From NCBI GenBank assembly GCA_020723305.1, contig DYJC01000016.1, positions 2,650-66,649 of the forward strand: a stretch of DNA of 64,000 bases. Direction: 5' to 3'. Numbering within the stretch: position 1 is the stretch's first letter; each line of letters opens with the position of its first letter. Source of the DNA: Desulfosudis oleivorans (GTDB lineage: Bacteria > Desulfobacterota > Desulfobacteria > Desulfobacterales > SURF-7). Shown piece after piece: positions 33,440 through 49,931 of the stretch. The notes beneath the pieces were generated by a model. It was given only the letters and a program-made list of their open reading frames with translations, did not search any database and had not been told where the DNA came from. The position numbers were made by a program, and so were the translations under genes.

Positions 33440-34323
33440 TACCGGAAGAGCTGGTTAAAAAAATCCGGTACATCCAGATTTATACCAGTAAGGCTGTCAA
33501 CGACTCCCTTGCCGGTGAATATGAAAGCGTTTTCAAGGGCAGGGGCATGGAGTTTGATGAGGTGCGGGAGTATAAAATCGGGGATGAAATCCGTTCCATT
33601 GACTGGAATGTCACGGCCCGGATGGGTGAACCATATGTAAAACGGTTTGTGGAAGAAAGAGAGCTGACCGTTTTATTTCTTGTGGATCTATCCGCATCCG
33701 GGGATTTTGGAAGCAGAAAACAGTTAAAGAATGAGGTCGCTGCCGAACTTTGTGCGCTTCTTTCATTTTCAGCCATCAAGAATAACGACAAGGTCGGGTT
33801 GATTGTTTTTACAGACCAGATCGAAATGTTTATTCCTCCAGCCAAAGGGACCAGCCATGTGTTGAGACTCATCCGTGAATTACTTCAGTTTAAACCCAAG
33901 CAGAAAAAAACAGATATTGCTTCAGCCCTTGCTTATCTGGATCGGATTACCCATAAAAAGTGCGTTGTATTTCTGGTCTCTGATTTTATCGCAAATGATT
34001 TTCAAAAAAAACTGCGGATTATTGGACGGCGTCATGACCTCATTGCGGTTTCGATTACCGATCCTCATGAGATCCGGTTGCCGGATGTGGGGTTGATCGA
34101 ACTTGAGGATTCGGAAACCGGAGAGATGTTTCTGGTTGATACGGGCAGTGCAATGGTTCGAAAACAGTATGAAAAATATGGACAGGAGAGACAGCGGAAT
34201 CTGAAAAAGCTTTTTCAGTCCATGGGAATTGATCAGGTTGAAATTTTTACAGATGGCAATTTTGTCTTTGATCTTGTAAGGTTTTTTCGGACAAGGGAAA
34301 GACGAAGGAATGTTAGGGTATGA
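33436..34323 (+). CDS. DUF58 (vWA-like) protein, MoxR partner
   Basis: 295 aa. YESVFKGRGMEFDEVREYKIGDEIRSIDWNVTAR ... FLVDLSASGDFGS is typical of DUF58. Confidence 0.85.
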   Translation: MIPEELVKKIRYIQIYTSKAVNDSLAGEYESVFKGRGMEFDEVREYKIGDEIRSIDWNVTARMGEPYVKRFVEERELTVLFLVDLSASGDFGSRKQLKNEVAAELCALLSFSAIKNNDKVGLIVFTDQIEMFIPPAKGTSHVLRLIRELLQFKPKQKKTDIASALAYLDRITHKKCVVFLVSDFIANDFQKKLRIIGRRHDLIAVSITDPHEIRLPDVGLIELEDSETGEMFLVDTGSAMVRKQYEKYGQERQRNLKKLFQSMGIDQVEIFTDGNFVFDLVRFFRTRERRRNVRV

Positions 34324-34337
34324 TGTTATACCCCCTG

Positions 34338-34407
34338 TTACACCCCCCTGGCCCCCCTCGAGGGGGGAATTGCCTCAAGGGGGGAATGCCATAAAAAGGG
34401 GGGATTT
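34338..34407 (+). repeat. C6/G6 palindromic repeat locus R1
   Basis: Core CACCCCCCTGGCCCCCCTCGAGGGGGGAAT at 34341-34370, followed by degenerate half-units (CTCAAGGGGGGAAT, AAAAGGGGGGATT). Confidence 0.85.
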
Positions 34408-34421
34408 ATGAGGAGTGTGTG

Positions 34422-37180: not shown

Positions 37181-38239
37181 ATGCACTTTGAATCGCCATT
37201 ATCATTTCTTCTTCTGCTCCTAATACCTTTTCTTTTATGGATCAGGCATCGAAGGGCAAAACCAGGAACGATCCGTTTCCCCTCGATACAGCATGCCGTG
37301 AAAGCGGGAAAATCGATCCGCCGACAATGGGTCTGGGTTCCTTCATTTCTTCGGGTTCTTGCACTTGTTTTTCTGACAATTGCCCTGGCAAGGCCCCAGA
37401 CCGGCTCAGAGCAGGTTCGGGATATCACCCAGGGTATTGCCATTGAGATGGTTGTGGATCGATCCGGCAGCATGGGGCAGGAGATGGAATACCGGGGAGT
37501 CAAAACAAACCGGCTGGAGGTGGTAAAACAGGTATTCAAGGAATTTCTGCTGGGAAATGAGGATGACCTCAAGGGAAGACCAAGCGATCTCATTGGAATC
37601 ATCTCTTTTGCAAGGTACCCGGATACAACCTGCCCGTTGACCCTGGCTCATGGTGCGCTCTCTCCCTTTATCGACAGCATCAAACTGGTTCAGACACGGG
37701 AGGAGGACGGAACCGCCATTGGAGATGCGCTTGCACTGGCGGCCGCGCGTCTGGAAAAAGTGGATGAAACAGTTGCTCTCCAAAGACAACAGGGAAATGA
37801 CAGCTACACCATTAAAAGCAGGATCATCATTCTATTGTCCGACGGTGAAAACAACAGAGGAAAACGGACTCCTCTGGAAGCAGCCGCGCTGGCAGCAAAA
37901 TGGGGTATAAAGGTCTATACGATCGCTATCGGAGGGGAGGATTCGGGAACCTCCATTCAGACGCCGTTTGGTGTTTATACAATTCCAGGCGGGCAAGGCG
38001 TTGATACAGAATCTCTCAAAGCGATCGCAAAACAGACCGGAGGTTCTTTTTATCAGGCGGAAGATGAGAAATCCCTTCGATCCATATATGAAGAGATTGA
38101 TAAAATGGAAAAAACAGAAATTGAATCCATTAAATATATTGACTACAAAGAGGTTTTTCTTCCGTTTGTTTATATGACGCTTTTTCTGATCGGGCTTGAA
38201 ATTCTGTTACGGGAAACCATCTTCAGGAAGATACCATGA
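37181..38239 (+). CDS. batA: vWA-domain membrane protein BatA
   Basis: 352 aa with N-terminal TM helices, MIDAS VVDRSGSMG and a C-terminal TM helix. Operon position follows DUF4381. Confidence 0.8.
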   Translation: MHFESPLSFLLLLLIPFLLWIRHRRAKPGTIRFPSIQHAVKAGKSIRRQWVWVPSFLRVLALVFLTIALARPQTGSEQVRDITQGIAIEMVVDRSGSMGQEMEYRGVKTNRLEVVKQVFKEFLLGNEDDLKGRPSDLIGIISFARYPDTTCPLTLAHGALSPFIDSIKLVQTREEDGTAIGDALALAAARLEKVDETVALQRQQGNDSYTIKSRIIILLSDGENNRGKRTPLEAAALAAKWGIKVYTIAIGGEDSGTSIQTPFGVYTIPGGQGVDTESLKAIAKQTGGSFYQAEDEKSLRSIYEEIDKMEKTEIESIKYIDYKEVFLPFVYMTLFLIGLEILLRETIFRKIP

Positions 38240-39255
38240 CCGGACTGCATCTGAACAACATTGAACAGCTTCATTTTCTATGGGTTGTATTGCCCCTGAT
38301 CGCTGTTTATATTTATGGCTGGTATCGGCGGAAAAAGGCGCTTGGAGATTTCATCGAGGCAGGACTTCTTCATAAAGTCCATATTTCGGCAACCAGCGGG
38401 TTCCGGCATCGCAAAATGATTCTGCTCCTGATTGCCGTAATCATGCTTGTGATTTCCATGACCCGGCCGGCCTGGAATTTTAAATCCGAGCGGATTGAAC
38501 GAAAAGGCCGTGATGTTGTTTTCCTTCTGGATGTCTCAAAAAGCATGCTGGCCGAGGATCTTGTACCCAATCGCCTGGAGCGGGCAAAACTCGCCATCGG
38601 GGATTGCGTGGATCAGCTTCAGGGAGATCGGGTCGCCCTGGTGGCCTTTGCCGGAACAGCTGCTGTGAAATGCCCGCTCACCCTGGATTATGGATTTTTC
38701 CGGATGATGCTGGACAGGATATCGACCGACAGCATTGAAAGAGGGGGAACAATGATCGGTGATGCAGTTCGAATGATACTTGCCGAGGTTCTGGACAATC
38801 AGGAGAAGGAATTCAAGGATATCATCCTGATCACGGACGGCGAGGATCATGAAAGCTTTCCGGTCGAGGCGGCAAAACAGGCTGGTGAAAAAGGTATCCG
38901 GATCATCGCAATCGGCTTAGGGGATGAAACAGAGGGCAAGCGGATCCCCATAACAACCGAACAGGGAACTCAAAAATTTCTGACCTACAAAGGACAGGAG
39001 ATCTGGACAAAGCTGGACGCCGCAACCCTGCGAAAGATGGTTCGGGAAACCCCCGGAGGGAAATATCTGAATGTTGCAACCGGAACCATCGATCTGGGAA
39101 AAGTATATCTGGATCTTGTGGCATCAGCAGCCAAAAAGGATCTGGAATCGGAAACCATCAAACGGTATGAGGAAAAATTTCAGGTTTTTTTGGGTGTTGC
39201 TTTTATTCTGATTTGTGTTGAAATGATTATGAGAGTAAAAGCAAAAGATAATTAA
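38236..39255 (+). CDS. batB: vWA-domain membrane protein BatB
   Basis: 339 aa. FLLDVSKSMLAEDLVPNRLERAKLAI contains the vWA MIDAS motif. The start overlaps the batA stop (ATGA). C-terminal TM helix. Confidence 0.8.
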   Translation: MTGLHLNNIEQLHFLWVVLPLIAVYIYGWYRRKKALGDFIEAGLLHKVHISATSGFRHRKMILLLIAVIMLVISMTRPAWNFKSERIERKGRDVVFLLDVSKSMLAEDLVPNRLERAKLAIGDCVDQLQGDRVALVAFAGTAAVKCPLTLDYGFFRMMLDRISTDSIERGGTMIGDAVRMILAEVLDNQEKEFKDIILITDGEDHESFPVEAAKQAGEKGIRIIAIGLGDETEGKRIPITTEQGTQKFLTYKGQEIWTKLDAATLRKMVRETPGGKYLNVATGTIDLGKVYLDLVASAAKKDLESETIKRYEEKFQVFLGVAFILICVEMIMRVKAKDN

Positions 39256-39286
39256 TATTCCCCCCTATATAATTGTGTCACATATA

Positions 39287-39343
39287 TTCCCCCCTTGAGG
39301 GGGGCGAAGGGGGGTGTCCTTGAGGGGGAATTAAAGGGGGATG
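39287..39343 (-). repeat. C6/G6 palindromic repeat locus R2 (inverted core plus half-units)
   Basis: ATTCCCCCCTTGAGGGGGGCGAAGGGGGGTG is the reverse complement of the R1 core with a few changes. It is followed by CCTTGAGGGGGAATTAAAGGGGGATG. Confidence 0.8.
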
Positions 39344-39390
39344 TAAATACTATGGTTTTTTCCAAAAAGTTACTATCGTGAATGGCTCAA

Positions 39391-39420
39391 CACCCCCCTG
39401 GCCCCCCTCCAGGGGGGAAT
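39391..39420 (+). repeat. C6/G6 palindromic repeat R3
   Basis: CACCCCCCTGGCCCCCCTCCAGGGGGGAAT, 53 nt upstream of the DUF559 start. Confidence 0.85.
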
Positions 39421-39472
39421 AAAAAATAAAAAATTCCAAATACGATTACCCAGGGAACCGGAGGAGCAGCCC

Positions 39473-39937
39473 TTGATAAAAGGCATTATACCTTACAACC
39501 CTGAACTAAAAGAACCGGCAAGAGATCTTCGAAAAAACAGCACGCTTTCAGAAGTGTTGCTTTGGCAGCAAATTCAGAAAAGGCAGATAGGAGGATATAA
39601 ATTTTTACGTCAAAAGCCGATTCATAATTACATTGTTGATTTTTATTGTAAGGATCTCATGCTTGCAATTGAAATTGATGGAGATTCTCACAATGTTAAA
39701 ATGGATTCAGATAGAAGACGGCAGTGTGATTTGGAGTTGATTGGTATTCGGTTTTTGCGATTTCTGGATATTGATATTAAAAAGAATATGGAAGGGGTGT
39801 TGATCGCTATACATAAATGTATTGAAGGGATTGAGAAAGGGCTTTTTGATATTGGCAACTCGACATCTACTACACCCATTACACATATTACACCCCCCTG
39901 CGCCCCCCTCGAGGGGGGAATAAACAGCAGGAAGTAA
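39473..39937 (+). CDS. DUF559 endonuclease-domain protein (Vsr/restriction-endonuclease-like fold)
   Basis: TTG 39473 has GGAGGAG 6 nt upstream. ARDLRKNSTLSEVLLWQQIQKRQIGGYKFLRQKPIHNYIVDFYCKDLMLAIEIDGDSH...IRFLRF matches the DUF559 pattern. The last ~15 codons read through repeat R4. Confidence 0.8.
   Translation: MIKGIIPYNPELKEPARDLRKNSTLSEVLLWQQIQKRQIGGYKFLRQKPIHNYIVDFYCKDLMLAIEIDGDSHNVKMDSDRRRQCDLELIGIRFLRFLDIDIKKNMEGVLIAIHKCIEGIEKGLFDIGNSTSTTPITHITPPCAPLEGGINSRK
39891..39921 (+). repeat. C6/G6 palindromic repeat R4
   Basis: CACCCCCCTGCGCCCCCCTCGAGGGGGGAAT, in the same orientation as R3, overlapping the 3' end of the DUF559 ORF. Confidence 0.85.
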
Positions 39938-39970
39938 CTCAAGGGGGTATAAGCAGCCGGAAAGACTTTT

Positions 39971-40912
39971 GTGATGGATTTGAAAGTTCAAATAAAATTA
40001 TACATTAGAAAGACAAATTTTGCAGTTTTGCTTCTGCTTATCTTGATCCCCGGCCACGCCCTGGGAGAATCCGCAGCAGAGATTGTCAAAAGAGGCAATA
40101 CTGCCTATTCCCTTGGCAAGTATGATGAGGCTTTGTCTGCATATGATGAGGCGTATCAAAAAGCCCCGGAATCCTCCCGGATTTTGTTTAACAAGGGTAC
40201 GGCTTTTTATCAGGAAGGGGAGTATCCGAAAGCGATTGAGGCATTTCAGGAAGCGGAACAGAAATCCAAAGAGCCTTTGTTGAATGCTTATACCCGGTTT
40301 AATCTGGGAAACAGCTATTTTCAGGAGGCGGAGCAGAAAAAGCAGACTGATCCAAACAAGGCACTGGAGTCATATGGCAAGAGCATCTTGAATTATCAGG
40401 AAGCGCTTGAACTATCCCCTGATTTTACAGAATCTGCGGAAAATATTGAAATCGCAAGGCTGGCAATGAAATCCGTCCAGGATGAGATGAATAAGCAGCA
40501 GCAATCATCTGAACAACAGAAACAGGCTGCGGAAAAGCAGGAATCCAATCAGCCAGGGCAGGCCACTGAAAATCAGCAGCAGGCAGCGGAAAATTTGAAA
40601 AAAGCGCTGGATTCCTTACAAGATGACAGCAAAGACAAACAGCAGCAGAATTCGCCAAAAGAAGATCAACAGCAGGGAGAGAACCAGCAGGAACAGCAGA
40701 ATCAGCAGGAGCAGGGGAAACAACAACAGGAGCAAGGGAAACAAAAGCAGCAGGAAGGGGCTCAGCAGAAATCAGAAGAGATGACCCCGGAAAATCAAAA
40801 TAGTCAATTGTCGGATGATGCGCTGGATATCCTTGATGAGGAAAAAGAAAACTTGAAACATCGTAACATGATCCGGATGAATGGTGATCCGGGAGTTGAA
40901 AGAGACTGGTGA
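39971..40912 (+). CDS. batC: TPR protein BatC-like with Q/E-rich tail
   Basis: 313 aa (GTG 39971 or ATG 39974) with a signal-like N-terminus. TPRs include GNTAYSLGKYDEALSAYDEAYQ and GTAFYQEGEYPKAIEAFQEA. Long Gln/Glu/Lys low-complexity tail. Operon position. Confidence 0.65.
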   Translation: MMDLKVQIKLYIRKTNFAVLLLLILIPGHALGESAAEIVKRGNTAYSLGKYDEALSAYDEAYQKAPESSRILFNKGTAFYQEGEYPKAIEAFQEAEQKSKEPLLNAYTRFNLGNSYFQEAEQKKQTDPNKALESYGKSILNYQEALELSPDFTESAENIEIARLAMKSVQDEMNKQQQSSEQQKQAAEKQESNQPGQATENQQQAAENLKKALDSLQDDSKDKQQQNSPKEDQQQGENQQEQQNQQEQGKQQQEQGKQKQQEGAQQKSEEMTPENQNSQLSDDALDILDEEKENLKHRNMIRMNGDPGVERDW

Positions 40913-42789: not shown

Positions 42790-42828
42790 TTGGATGGAGT
42801 TGCTGTTTATGATTCCTGTTGAGTACTA

Positions 42829-43006
42829 CACCCCCCTGGCCCCCCTCGAGGGGGGAATTTTTAAGCGGGGAATCCTCGAGGGGGGGTTTTCAGGCGAAGA
42901 ATCCTAAAGGGAGAATTTTCAAGCGGGGGATCAATTCGCTCCTCAAGCGGATACCATAAGGTATTCCCCCCTTGAGGGGGGTGAAGGGGGGTGTCCCTTG
43001 AGGGAA
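42829..43006. repeat. C6/G6 palindromic repeat cluster R5
   Basis: A plus-oriented core at 42829-42858 is followed by a run of degenerate half-units (AAGCGGGGAATCCTCGAGGGGGGG, AAAGGGAGAAT, AAGCGGGGGATC). An inverted core ATTCCCCCCTTGAGGGGGGTGAAGGGGGGTG begins at 42963. Confidence 0.85.
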
Positions 43007-43101
43007 GACGCTGGTGGGTATTCTTGAGACGATCACATGGATGCCACTGAGAGAAAATTGAAAACCGGTATTTTTTAATAGAGAATTTAATTCCAGTATT
43101 T

Positions 43102-49897: not shown

Positions 49898-49931
49898 CAC
49901 ACCCCCCTTAATCCCCCCTCAAGGGGGGAAT
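49898..49931 (+). repeat. C6/G6 palindromic repeat R6
   Basis: CACACCCCCCTTAATCCCCCCTCAAGGGGGGAAT, followed by the half-unit CCCCAAGGGAGAAT. Confidence 0.8.

Follow-up and report, generated by a model that had tools for sequence, protein, structure and literature searches.

The stretch of Desulfosudis oleivorans DNA analysed here (64 kb of contig DYJC01000016.1, referred to below as the window) contains a bat operon in which a small gene for a DUF559 protein, framed by short hairpin repeats built of C6 and G6 blocks, separates batB from batC. The upstream gene, batB (38236-39255, + strand), encodes a VWA protein (Pfam VWA_2, E=3e-21) and the downstream gene, batC (39971-40912, + strand), a TPR protein (Pfam TPR families), with BatA and BatD adjacent. 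The gap between batB and batC is 715 nt, and the insertion starts past the batB stop codon. The only open reading frame (ORF) in this cassette is that of the DUF559 protein (154 aa, TTG start, 39473-39937, + strand; Pfam PF04480, E=3.9e-29), and no recognised transposase (DDE, HUH or serine/tyrosine) is encoded there. A Shine-Dalgarno-like GGAGGAG can be read 6 nt 5' of the start codon (39460-39466, + strand). The gene is enclosed by a left (-) unit, consisting of a hairpin and a G-tail (39286-39317, ATT-CCCCCC-TTGA-GGGGGG-CGAA-GGGGGG-TGT; full-length match to the covariance model R1 described below, E=0.0046), and its inverted partner, a right (+) unit with a C-tail and hairpin within the final codons of the ORF (39890-39921, ACA-CCCCCC-TGCG-CCCCCC-TCGA-GGGGGG-AAT; R1 E=0.012), such that 39285-39317 and 39890-39922 form a 33-nt inverted repeat with 94% complementarity. 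A further (+) unit (39390-39420; R1 E=0.0029) lies between the left unit and the gene and forms an inverted doublet with the former; the region 39280-39426 folds as a single long hairpin in single-stranded DNA folding (-38.6 kcal/mol, z=-5.2). The features listed in a preliminary description of this locus, among them the 154-aa DUF559 ORF between batB and batC and its GGAGGAG ribosome binding site, are all present and lie no more than 1 nt from where it had placed them. It had also presented the cassette as bounded by direct copies of the repeat. Same-orientation units do occur at 39390-39420 and 39890-39921, because the extra unit sits between the left unit and the gene, but the frame that defines the family as a whole is the inverted pair.

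Seven copies of the core sequence CCCCCCTNNAGGGGGG are present in the window, against 0.01 expected from 100 shuffles of the 64-kb sequence. The complete unit is ~31 nt long and has three blocks, ACA-CCCCCC-TGG-CCCCCC-TCGA-GGGGGG-AAT, in which a C-rich tail is followed by a 16-nt palindrome, and the third block ACACCCCCCT adjoins the palindrome in every window unit. The preliminary description had treated the repeat as a palindrome; the palindrome is there, but it is part of a three-block C6/C6/G6 unit of the known BoxC/PIT/TM family of intrastrand-triplex motifs (PMC4666352). Holder et al. (2015; PMC4666352), who equate TM repeats with BoxC and PIT elements, require of the motif three successive blocks (C, G, G or the complement), each no shorter than 6 nt and separated by loops of 1-6 nt, and all seven window units, being C6-loop-G6-loop-G6 or its complement, fall within this definition. 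All seven are intergenic, except that the unit at 39890-39921 overlaps the 3' end of the DUF559 ORF. A covariance model (R1), trained on the units of foreign loci alone and on no window sequence, finds exactly these seven units at full length (E=5e-4 to 0.016, the next match having E=1.6), and the window units can be assigned to a repeat family that crosses phyla. Block 3 is a mirror image of block 2, at 6-9 of 7-9 block positions, in all ten variants that we compared (those of the window, E. coli, Azospirillum and Mucilaginibacter among them), and an A or T stands opposite the A:T pair, as expected of triplex-type motifs. Searches against Rfam gave no family match in the window (gathering threshold) or in eight of the loci (E-value mode), the palindromes alone giving chance microRNA-like matches.

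The cassette protein is predicted to be a YcjD-type DUF559 (COG2852) nuclease of the Vsr-like PD-(D/E)XK class. The PF04480 match covers residues 12-117 with 101 bits against a cut-off of 20.6, the YcjD model of NCBIfam (NF007294) matches with E=1e-21 and 77 bits, which is under its 218-bit equivalog cut-off, and the sequence also matches PDB entry 3HRL (E=3e-15). Residues D56, E67, D69, H73, D80 and R96 are conserved in 99-100% of 81 relatives; the first four, which make up the active-site pattern D...E-x-D-x3-H, are kept throughout these relatives and are present in the window protein. An AlphaFold2 model has an overall predicted local distance difference test (pLDDT) score of 80.8, with a core above 90, and a Foldseek search with this model lists 3HRL (E=6e-8, TM-score 0.86), the homing endonuclease I-Bth0305I (3R3P, E=7e-4) and Vsr (1VSR). 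The ORF reads through the right repeat unit (...TPPCAPLEGGINSRK*), giving a unit-encoded tail of residues 128-154 for which pLDDT is below 50 (disordered). Ratios of non-synonymous to synonymous substitution (dN/dS) were calculated for 14 pairs, 12 of syntenic orthologues and two of paralogues; dS was estimable in 11 and saturated in three, and in those 11 the ratio is 0.03-0.25, the mark of a protein that appears to be under strong purifying selection. DUF559/YcjD is a very large family of small nucleases, and we know of no established role for it. Two candidate settings for the protein were rejected: carriage by phages, as no relatives of the protein were found in 2.9 million viral contigs (in which the canonical unit occurs 10 times, never beside DUF559), and membership of a defence system, since the one PADLOC match is weak and concerns a methyl-directed restriction enzyme, namely its nuclease domain.

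The link between DUF559 and the repeat that the preliminary description drew at this one locus is real and reaches well beyond it, to a set of 80 other loci, to cyanobacterial and Azospirillum replicons, and to ycjD of E. coli. The 80 loci, which serve as the comparison set, were retrieved with the protein as query against one genome per species and come from Bacteroidota, Ignavibacteriota, Chlorobiota, Brocadiales, Cyanobacteriota, Marinimicrobia, Calditrichota, Fibrobacterota and other groups. This sample is not biased towards the repeat, because the peptide patterns used for retrieval correspond mostly to the invariant DFYCKDLM motif. In most of the loci the gene is preceded by TCCCCTCC-nn-GGAGGGG-TT-AGGGGTGGGT and followed by ACCCACCCCT-nn-CCCCTCC-nn-GGAGGGG-AAT, that is, a hairpin and G-tail upstream and a C-tail and hairpin downstream. 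The palindrome of this canonical unit and that of the window are both 16 nt and differ by two compensated pair changes. Within 100 nt of the gene, upstream units are oriented (-) in 54 cases versus (+) in seven, and downstream units (+) in 59 versus (-) in seven, while 20 of 190 units lie more than 300 nt away. Of 43 (-,+) pairs, 41 have a spacing of 371-649 nt, mostly 371-450 nt, and so enclose the gene. Between the upstream unit and the start codon there are typically 0-30 nt, and the stop codon is often a TAA inside ACCCACCCCTAA of the downstream unit.

Several of the closest relatives of the window protein share its C6/G6 variant. The closest DUF559 match in the genome collection is 63% identical; the protein P0124 is 73% identical, and its gene has the C6/G6 variant in the canonical layout, with the inverted unit 8 nt before the ATG and the ORF reading through the forward unit. 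The C6/G6 variant is also found beside the genes at loci L002 (63%) and L141 (57%). More distant DUF559 genes have this design with other unit variants: the one on a Pseudanabaena plasmid is enclosed by an inverted repeat of 35 nt with 97% complementarity, and those of PCC 7002 (pAQ6) and Azospirillum follow the same pattern of gene plus repeat. By these comparisons of sequence, the window cassette is one copy of a widespread family in which a ~117-codon YcjD-type gene stands between inverted BoxC/TM units. An independent hint of a link between DUF559 and inverted repeats comes from a survey of predicted inversions between inverted repeats, in which 'DUF559 domain-containing protein' is enriched among the genes hit (odds ratio 14.3; PMC9881135). 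Apart from that table row, we found no publication that links DUF559 to BoxC/PIT/TM (subscription journals lay mostly outside the search) and no paper that contains the unit sequences. DUF559 and the repeats were each known already; their systematic pairing is described in none of the papers searched, although a prior description is possible.

Three further arrangements were observed among these loci. A Calditrichaceae locus (L004:2850-3400) encodes a 62% identical protein flanked by direct copies of a different repeat of ~70 nt (GACATCCCTCTGGTTG...GTCTCCCTTCnnAAGGGAGATT), so a DUF559 gene can evidently pair with another repeat type. At L025 (2840-2996 and 3401-3555), and also at L034, L042 and L043, near-identical direct doublets of ~155 bp, each forward-spacer-inverted, are present on both sides of the gene, a layout that resembles 1⅓ turns of a tandem repeat, or what a circle would give on integrating, Campbell-type, at a resident doublet. 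In three genomes the whole cassette lies in-frame inside a type I hsdR gene (L008:1978-5754 of Aequorivita nionensis, L005:1933-5835, and L009), between the AVNRA motif and the GSGKS helicase motif. The combined ORFs are uninterrupted (1258 aa in L008 and 1300 aa in L005, with L009 likewise reading through), the units being translated as linkers rich in Pro, Ser, Glu and Gly (PTPSPSEEGN..., PTPGPSQEGK...). Flavobacteriia and two anammox bacteria alike preserve the frame, which suggests a tolerated or functional domain insertion that may have been spread by gene transfer. No intein motifs are visible on reading the ORF translation, no intein/Hint profile search having been run.

The literature on BoxC/PIT/TM repeats of E. 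coli goes back to the early 1990s (earlier reports are Bergler 1992 and Hoyne/Maher 2000, as cited in PMC4666352), and their origin has stayed unexplained for ~30 years. The 2015 survey found the TM motif in more than 260 genomes and linked it to locus instability; it describes TM loci as intrinsically unstable and as stalling polymerase in vitro, and triplex formation in vitro was shown for E. coli TMECO oligonucleotides (PMC4666352). It found no mobility function, gene association or mechanism of spread, and at no point mentions ycjD, DUF559 or an endonuclease. The repeats described here resemble these elements in their three-block design (C-block, short loop, G-block, a 3-4-nt loop that is often TTA, G-block), in the mirroring of block 2 by block 3, and in being dispersed, intergenic, often paired in inverted orientation and variable between close strains. 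They differ in that the window variant has pure C6/G6 blocks and not CCCTCNCCC, and whereas no associated gene was reported for the published repeats, here a DUF559 gene is systematically framed by units.

The same association can be recognised in E. coli itself. YcjD, after which this type of DUF559 protein is named, and NGO0050 of N. gonorrhoeae (3HRL) belong to the same DUF559 family as the window protein, and the ycjD ORF too ends in a BoxC-like hairpin, its TGA stop codon lying in the loop of CCCTCTCCC...GAGCGAGGG. The sequence CCCTCGCCCCTCTGGGGAGAGGGTTAGGGTGAGGGG, 168 nt downstream of ycjD, is TMECO no. 9 (1,351,204-1,351,239). The ycjD locus differs in being ~41% identical to the window protein (tblastn), and E. 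coli has downstream units only and a single copy of the gene. Of 5,426 complete E. coli genomes, 3,378 have ycjD and 4,605 a TMECO 36-mer, at 1-11 places each, and units therefore persist without the gene. Published TMECO counts are 23 in K-12, 29 in strain 55989 and one in IHE3034 (PMC4666352), and ycjD and the eefRABCD efflux operon are mutually exclusive at the fabI-sapF locus (PMC12817139); both observations are suggestive with regard to a link between ycjD and TMECO. IHE3034 belongs to phylogroup B2/ST95. In that lineage eefRABCD takes the place of ycjD (PMC12817139). In MG1655 (1351040-1351440; L223:3030-3440), a degenerate duplicate of the last ~60 nt of ycjD and its hairpin precedes TMECO no. 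9, and looks like what is left of a second cassette end, or like a product of slippage at the unit.

The preliminary description regarded the module of gene and repeats as a discrete insertion, and comparison of the bat operons of relatives bears this out. The cassette is absent from L083, a metagenome-assembled genome (MAG) of Desulfobacteraceae, and from L204 and L205, whose BatB proteins are 85%, 84% and 74% identical to that of the window, respectively. In L083 batB and batC overlap by ATGA, and in L204 and L205 they are adjacent or overlapping, the batB stop overlapping the batC start in L205. Because batB is followed directly by batC in these three relatives, the cassette is an insertion. 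Two metagenome contigs (P0121 and P0123) encode DUF559 proteins 82-83% identical to the window protein at the same position, followed by BatD, and in P0123 BatA and BatB are directly upstream. Two other contigs, assembled from short reads, come from the same or a sister strain: L001 (100% nucleotide identity to the window) ends at window position 39415, inside the (+) unit at 39390-39420, and L082 (93%) ends at 39315, inside the left unit. The insertion at batB/batC therefore predates the strain, yet it is missing in several relatives. As L001 and L082 both break within a unit after batB, the repeat units fragment metagenome assemblies and will hide cassettes like this one, a practical consequence for short-read data.

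The ends of the cassette coincide with the units. Two paralogues in one MAG (L013 and L014) share 463 bp at 87% identity, and both limits of this shared stretch lie at the outer ends of the units. Terminal inverted repeats, a feature of insertion sequences (IS) and miniature inverted-repeat transposable elements (MITEs), are thus present, 33 nt long in the window, and the similarity between paralogues stops at the units. Two further loci (L206:2319-2940 and L207:2197-2818) are 100% identical over 622 bp and have unrelated upstream flanks; this stretch is made up of a 182-nt AT-rich leader, a partial and an inverted unit, the gene for DUF559 and a forward unit, and both contigs end in tandem reiterations of ATCCCCTCAAGGGGGGAATTTAAAGTGA. 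Such identity indicates recent mobility, or possibly an assembly artefact at repeats. In pairs of loci from a Pontibacter trio and from L049, 29-32 of the 30-32 nt of the unit cores are identical and synonymous sites differ by 25-76%, and in three other pairs the units are ~80-90% identical, the differences being mostly in loop and spacer. The gene and the units are therefore both maintained, and gene conversion could add to the uniformity of the units. No inversion of the cassette was seen among the 12 syntenic orthologue pairs.

Units also occur on their own. A cluster at 34316-34414 (+ strand) of the window, between DUF58 and nucleotidyl-transferase genes, consists of a solo (+) unit (34340-34370; R1 E=0.0034) and half-unit reiterations; it is absent in the 93% identical L082 (L082:1295-1303) and present in the 83% identical L083 (L083:2150-2215). 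The solo unit of L083 is flanked by an exact 9-nt direct repeat, TATGTGATG, which duplicates a stop/start overlap such that both flanking genes stay intact. A metagenome scan for C6/G6 hairpins, which selects by unit and not by gene, returned 120 loci with 173 hairpins, 131 of them with a ACACCCCCCT tail. The commonest paired arrangement is an 86-bp (-,+) doublet with a cassette-like outer architecture, which folds as one hairpin (z=-10). In one metagenome (Ga0272440; loci L088, L098, L106, L123, L130, L149, L158, L178 and L196) the 86-bp doublet is found at the exact centre of at least two families of larger palindromic repeats, which have AGGTGATTTCCGGAAAAGAATTTACCAAG... and TGTTGAATTAAGGATAAAT... 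as their own inverted ends. Either these are miniature elements of composite build, or the doublet has inserted into the tips of other palindromes.

Any explanation has to accommodate the architecture and boundaries of the cassette, its presence in some genomes and absence from others, the conservation of gene and units alike, and the recurrence of the pairing across phyla. Because the pairing recurs in many phyla, E. coli included, the DUF559 nuclease is the first concrete candidate for a partner of these repeats. The reading that we favour, to which we would give a probability of roughly one half, is that the nuclease recognises the unit or its folded form and that repair of the resulting breaks spreads and homogenises both units and gene, much as the preliminary description had supposed of an enzyme that recognises, nicks or spreads the repeat. 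The cassette was inserted at the batB/batC junction and acquired the extra unit, between its left end and the gene, afterwards. The nuclease would recognise the unit as duplex DNA or as a folded hairpin or triplex and would nick or cut at or near it. Repair would then copy sequence from other unit-bearing loci, keeping the units uniform and moving the gene among unit-marked sites, and the same copying would leave gene-less inverted doublets and solo units in intergenic spacers.

Several observations weigh against spreading by the nuclease. Units far outnumber genes, DUF559 being present at two of the 120 unit-selected metagenome loci (adjacent to a unit in both), and by the totals given above at least ~1,200 E. 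coli genomes carry TMECO without ycjD. Some DUF559 loci lack one or both units: with a stricter unit profile, scored in 75 loci, both flanks were detected in 38, the upstream unit in 49 and the downstream unit in 54. Units reach new, non-homologous sites, yet a PD-(D/E)XK nuclease alone cannot carry out strand transfer. The 9-nt duplication at the one solo insertion is of a kind typical for DDE transposition, and at 22 canonical cassettes there is no excess of target duplication over mismatched-flank controls, such that a general target-site duplication at cassette ends was rejected. A purely selfish homing gene would not usually be retained vertically for long under purifying selection. Lastly, protein clade and unit variant covary imperfectly, L003 and L004 (61-62% identity) having other flanks and L154 (43%) a C6/G6-like unit; clean covariation was rejected as it is partial only, and the neighbour-joining tree, built on 117 aa, suffers from noise and from confounding by host phylogeny.

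Part of this evidence would suit an explanation in which the units are the ends of miniature transposable elements, or unstable DNA that propagates itself, and are moved by host repair or an enzyme other than DUF559, with DUF559 as cargo and with instability arising from polymerase stalling and recombination at triplex-forming sequences. The vast excess of units over genes, the 9-nt direct repeat, the persistence of TMECO in E. coli genomes without ycjD, the central position of the doublets, in one metagenome, within larger composite palindromes that have terminal inverted repeats themselves, and the instability and polymerase stalling reported for TM loci (PMC4666352) all fit it. We nevertheless consider it unlikely, as across phyla the DUF559 family and no other cargo is found between units at fixed and very short distances, and in the unit-selected sample no (-,+) pair with a gene-sized gap held another gene. 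Strong purifying selection on DUF559 also speaks against a mere cargo, and no transposase is associated with the units, either here or in the 2015 survey.

The nuclease could instead benefit its host through Vsr-like, structure-specific repair of TM hairpins or triplexes, for example at stalled forks, with no part in spreading, the linkage then reflecting joint acquisition or regulation of the gene by the units. Syntenic vertical retention with dN/dS of 0.03-0.25, the predicted Vsr-like fold, the single copy in E. coli and the tolerance of the cassette in-frame in hsdR of three genomes are all consistent with this. It does not sit well with several copies per genome whose similarity is bounded by the units, nor with identical copies in unrelated contexts, and repair acting in trans leaves the tight, oriented frame unexplained; we regard it as rather improbable. 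Most doubtful is the proposal that the units are expression signals of the gene (hairpins in untranslated regions, 5'-3' pairing of the complementary G-tail and C-tail, insulators, or an invertible switch) with solo units as decayed cassettes: an upstream unit ending 0-30 nt before the start in most loci, stop codons inside the downstream unit and the enrichment of DUF559 among predicted inversion targets (PMC9881135) would suit it, but PIT/TM elements had neither promoter nor terminator activity in the earlier work as summarised in PMC4666352, an intrinsic terminator or promoter role was rejected for the window units, in which no terminator-like sites were found and promoter-like sites are at background level, the orthologue pairs show no inversion, and solo units and doublets are too many, too uniform and too polymorphic for relics.

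Returning to the favoured reading, in which the nuclease acts on the unit, a broader and more tentative proposal, which we hold with somewhat less than even confidence, is that YcjD-type DUF559 proteins are the cognate enzymes of BoxC/PIT/TM repeats in general. A Vsr-like nuclease of roughly 120 aa would recognise a hairpin- or triplex-forming unit of ~30 nt, in many bacterial phyla. Enzyme and repeat would then form a second, independently evolved partnership like that of repetitive extragenic palindromic (REP) elements with REP-associated tyrosine transposases (RAYTs), causing the instability of TM loci and settling even in-frame within genes. The preliminary description cited REP/RAYT as a precedent, and the anatomy fits, with a gene between inverted short hairpin repeats, many gene-less doublets that fold into long hairpins, solo units in intergenic spacers, and a gene retained vertically under purifying selection. 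The enzyme is different, however, a predicted Vsr-like PD-(D/E)XK nuclease here and an HUH/Y1 (IS200/IS605-like) transposase in RAYT, so the cassette is an analogue and not a member of the REP/REPIN-RAYT class. The repeat here is a triplex-type three-block motif, the DUF559 gene is often multi-copy, and whereas REPs are lineage-specific the DUF559-linked unit is nearly the same across phyla. The pairing merges two open questions, how the repeats spread and what DUF559 does, into one hypothesis that can be tested in E. coli K-12. If it holds, it would add a second enzyme class to partnerships of a repeat with an enzyme, explain rearrangement hot spots, and provide a very small nuclease with a long, possibly structure-dependent recognition site.

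Two other groups of elements invite comparison. With the EDxHD homing endonuclease I-Bth0305I (3R3P) and with Vsr, the window protein shares a predicted Vsr-like core with acidic and histidine residues, and its gene behaves as an insertion. The gene differs from EDxHD homing genes in being free-standing in intergenic spacers, with no intron or intein and no separate N-terminal DNA-binding domain in the protein, and in being framed by its own inverted repeats; its presumed target is a dispersed repeat and not one conserved site in a gene. Vsr is linked to a cytosine methyltransferase, and the DUF559 gene is not. Rickettsia palindromic elements and in-frame MITEs likewise place palindromes inside ORFs with the frame kept, as in hsdR of L005, L008 and L009, but the DUF559 element carries a nuclease gene and no relationship to a transposase is known for it.

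The remaining repeat sequences of the window lie in intergenic spacers. In the cassette, the 30 nt between batB and the left unit (39256-39285) contain an isolated half-unit, ATTCCCCCCT, also present in L082, and the left unit is trailed by degenerate reiterations of the 3' half of the unit (CCTTGAGGGGGAAT and AAAGGGGGAT, 39318-39345), similar ones of which trail units elsewhere. On the right, the filler at 39922-39970 contains a half-unit, CTCAAGGGGGTAT, and a stretch, CCGGAAAGAC, that may be left over from the former 3' end of batB and resembles ...CGGGCAAAGACATGA of L083, although the match is weak; these assignments were made by reading the sequence. A solo (+) unit at 49899-49931 (R1 E=0.016) is located in the spacer between the end of one ORF (49882) and the start of the next (49988). 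The 313-nt spacer after batD (42790-43101) holds, within 42822-43000, a forward (+) unit (42828-42858; R1 E=0.0005), degenerate half-units (TCAAGCGGGGAAT, CCTCGAGGGGGGG, CCTAAAGGGAGAAT...) and an inverted (-) unit (42963-42994; R1 E=0.0056), so that 42828/42963 forms a second inverted pair in the window besides 39286/39390. In L083, batD and the next gene overlap, with no spacer. Repeats have therefore entered the bat operon at three junctions.

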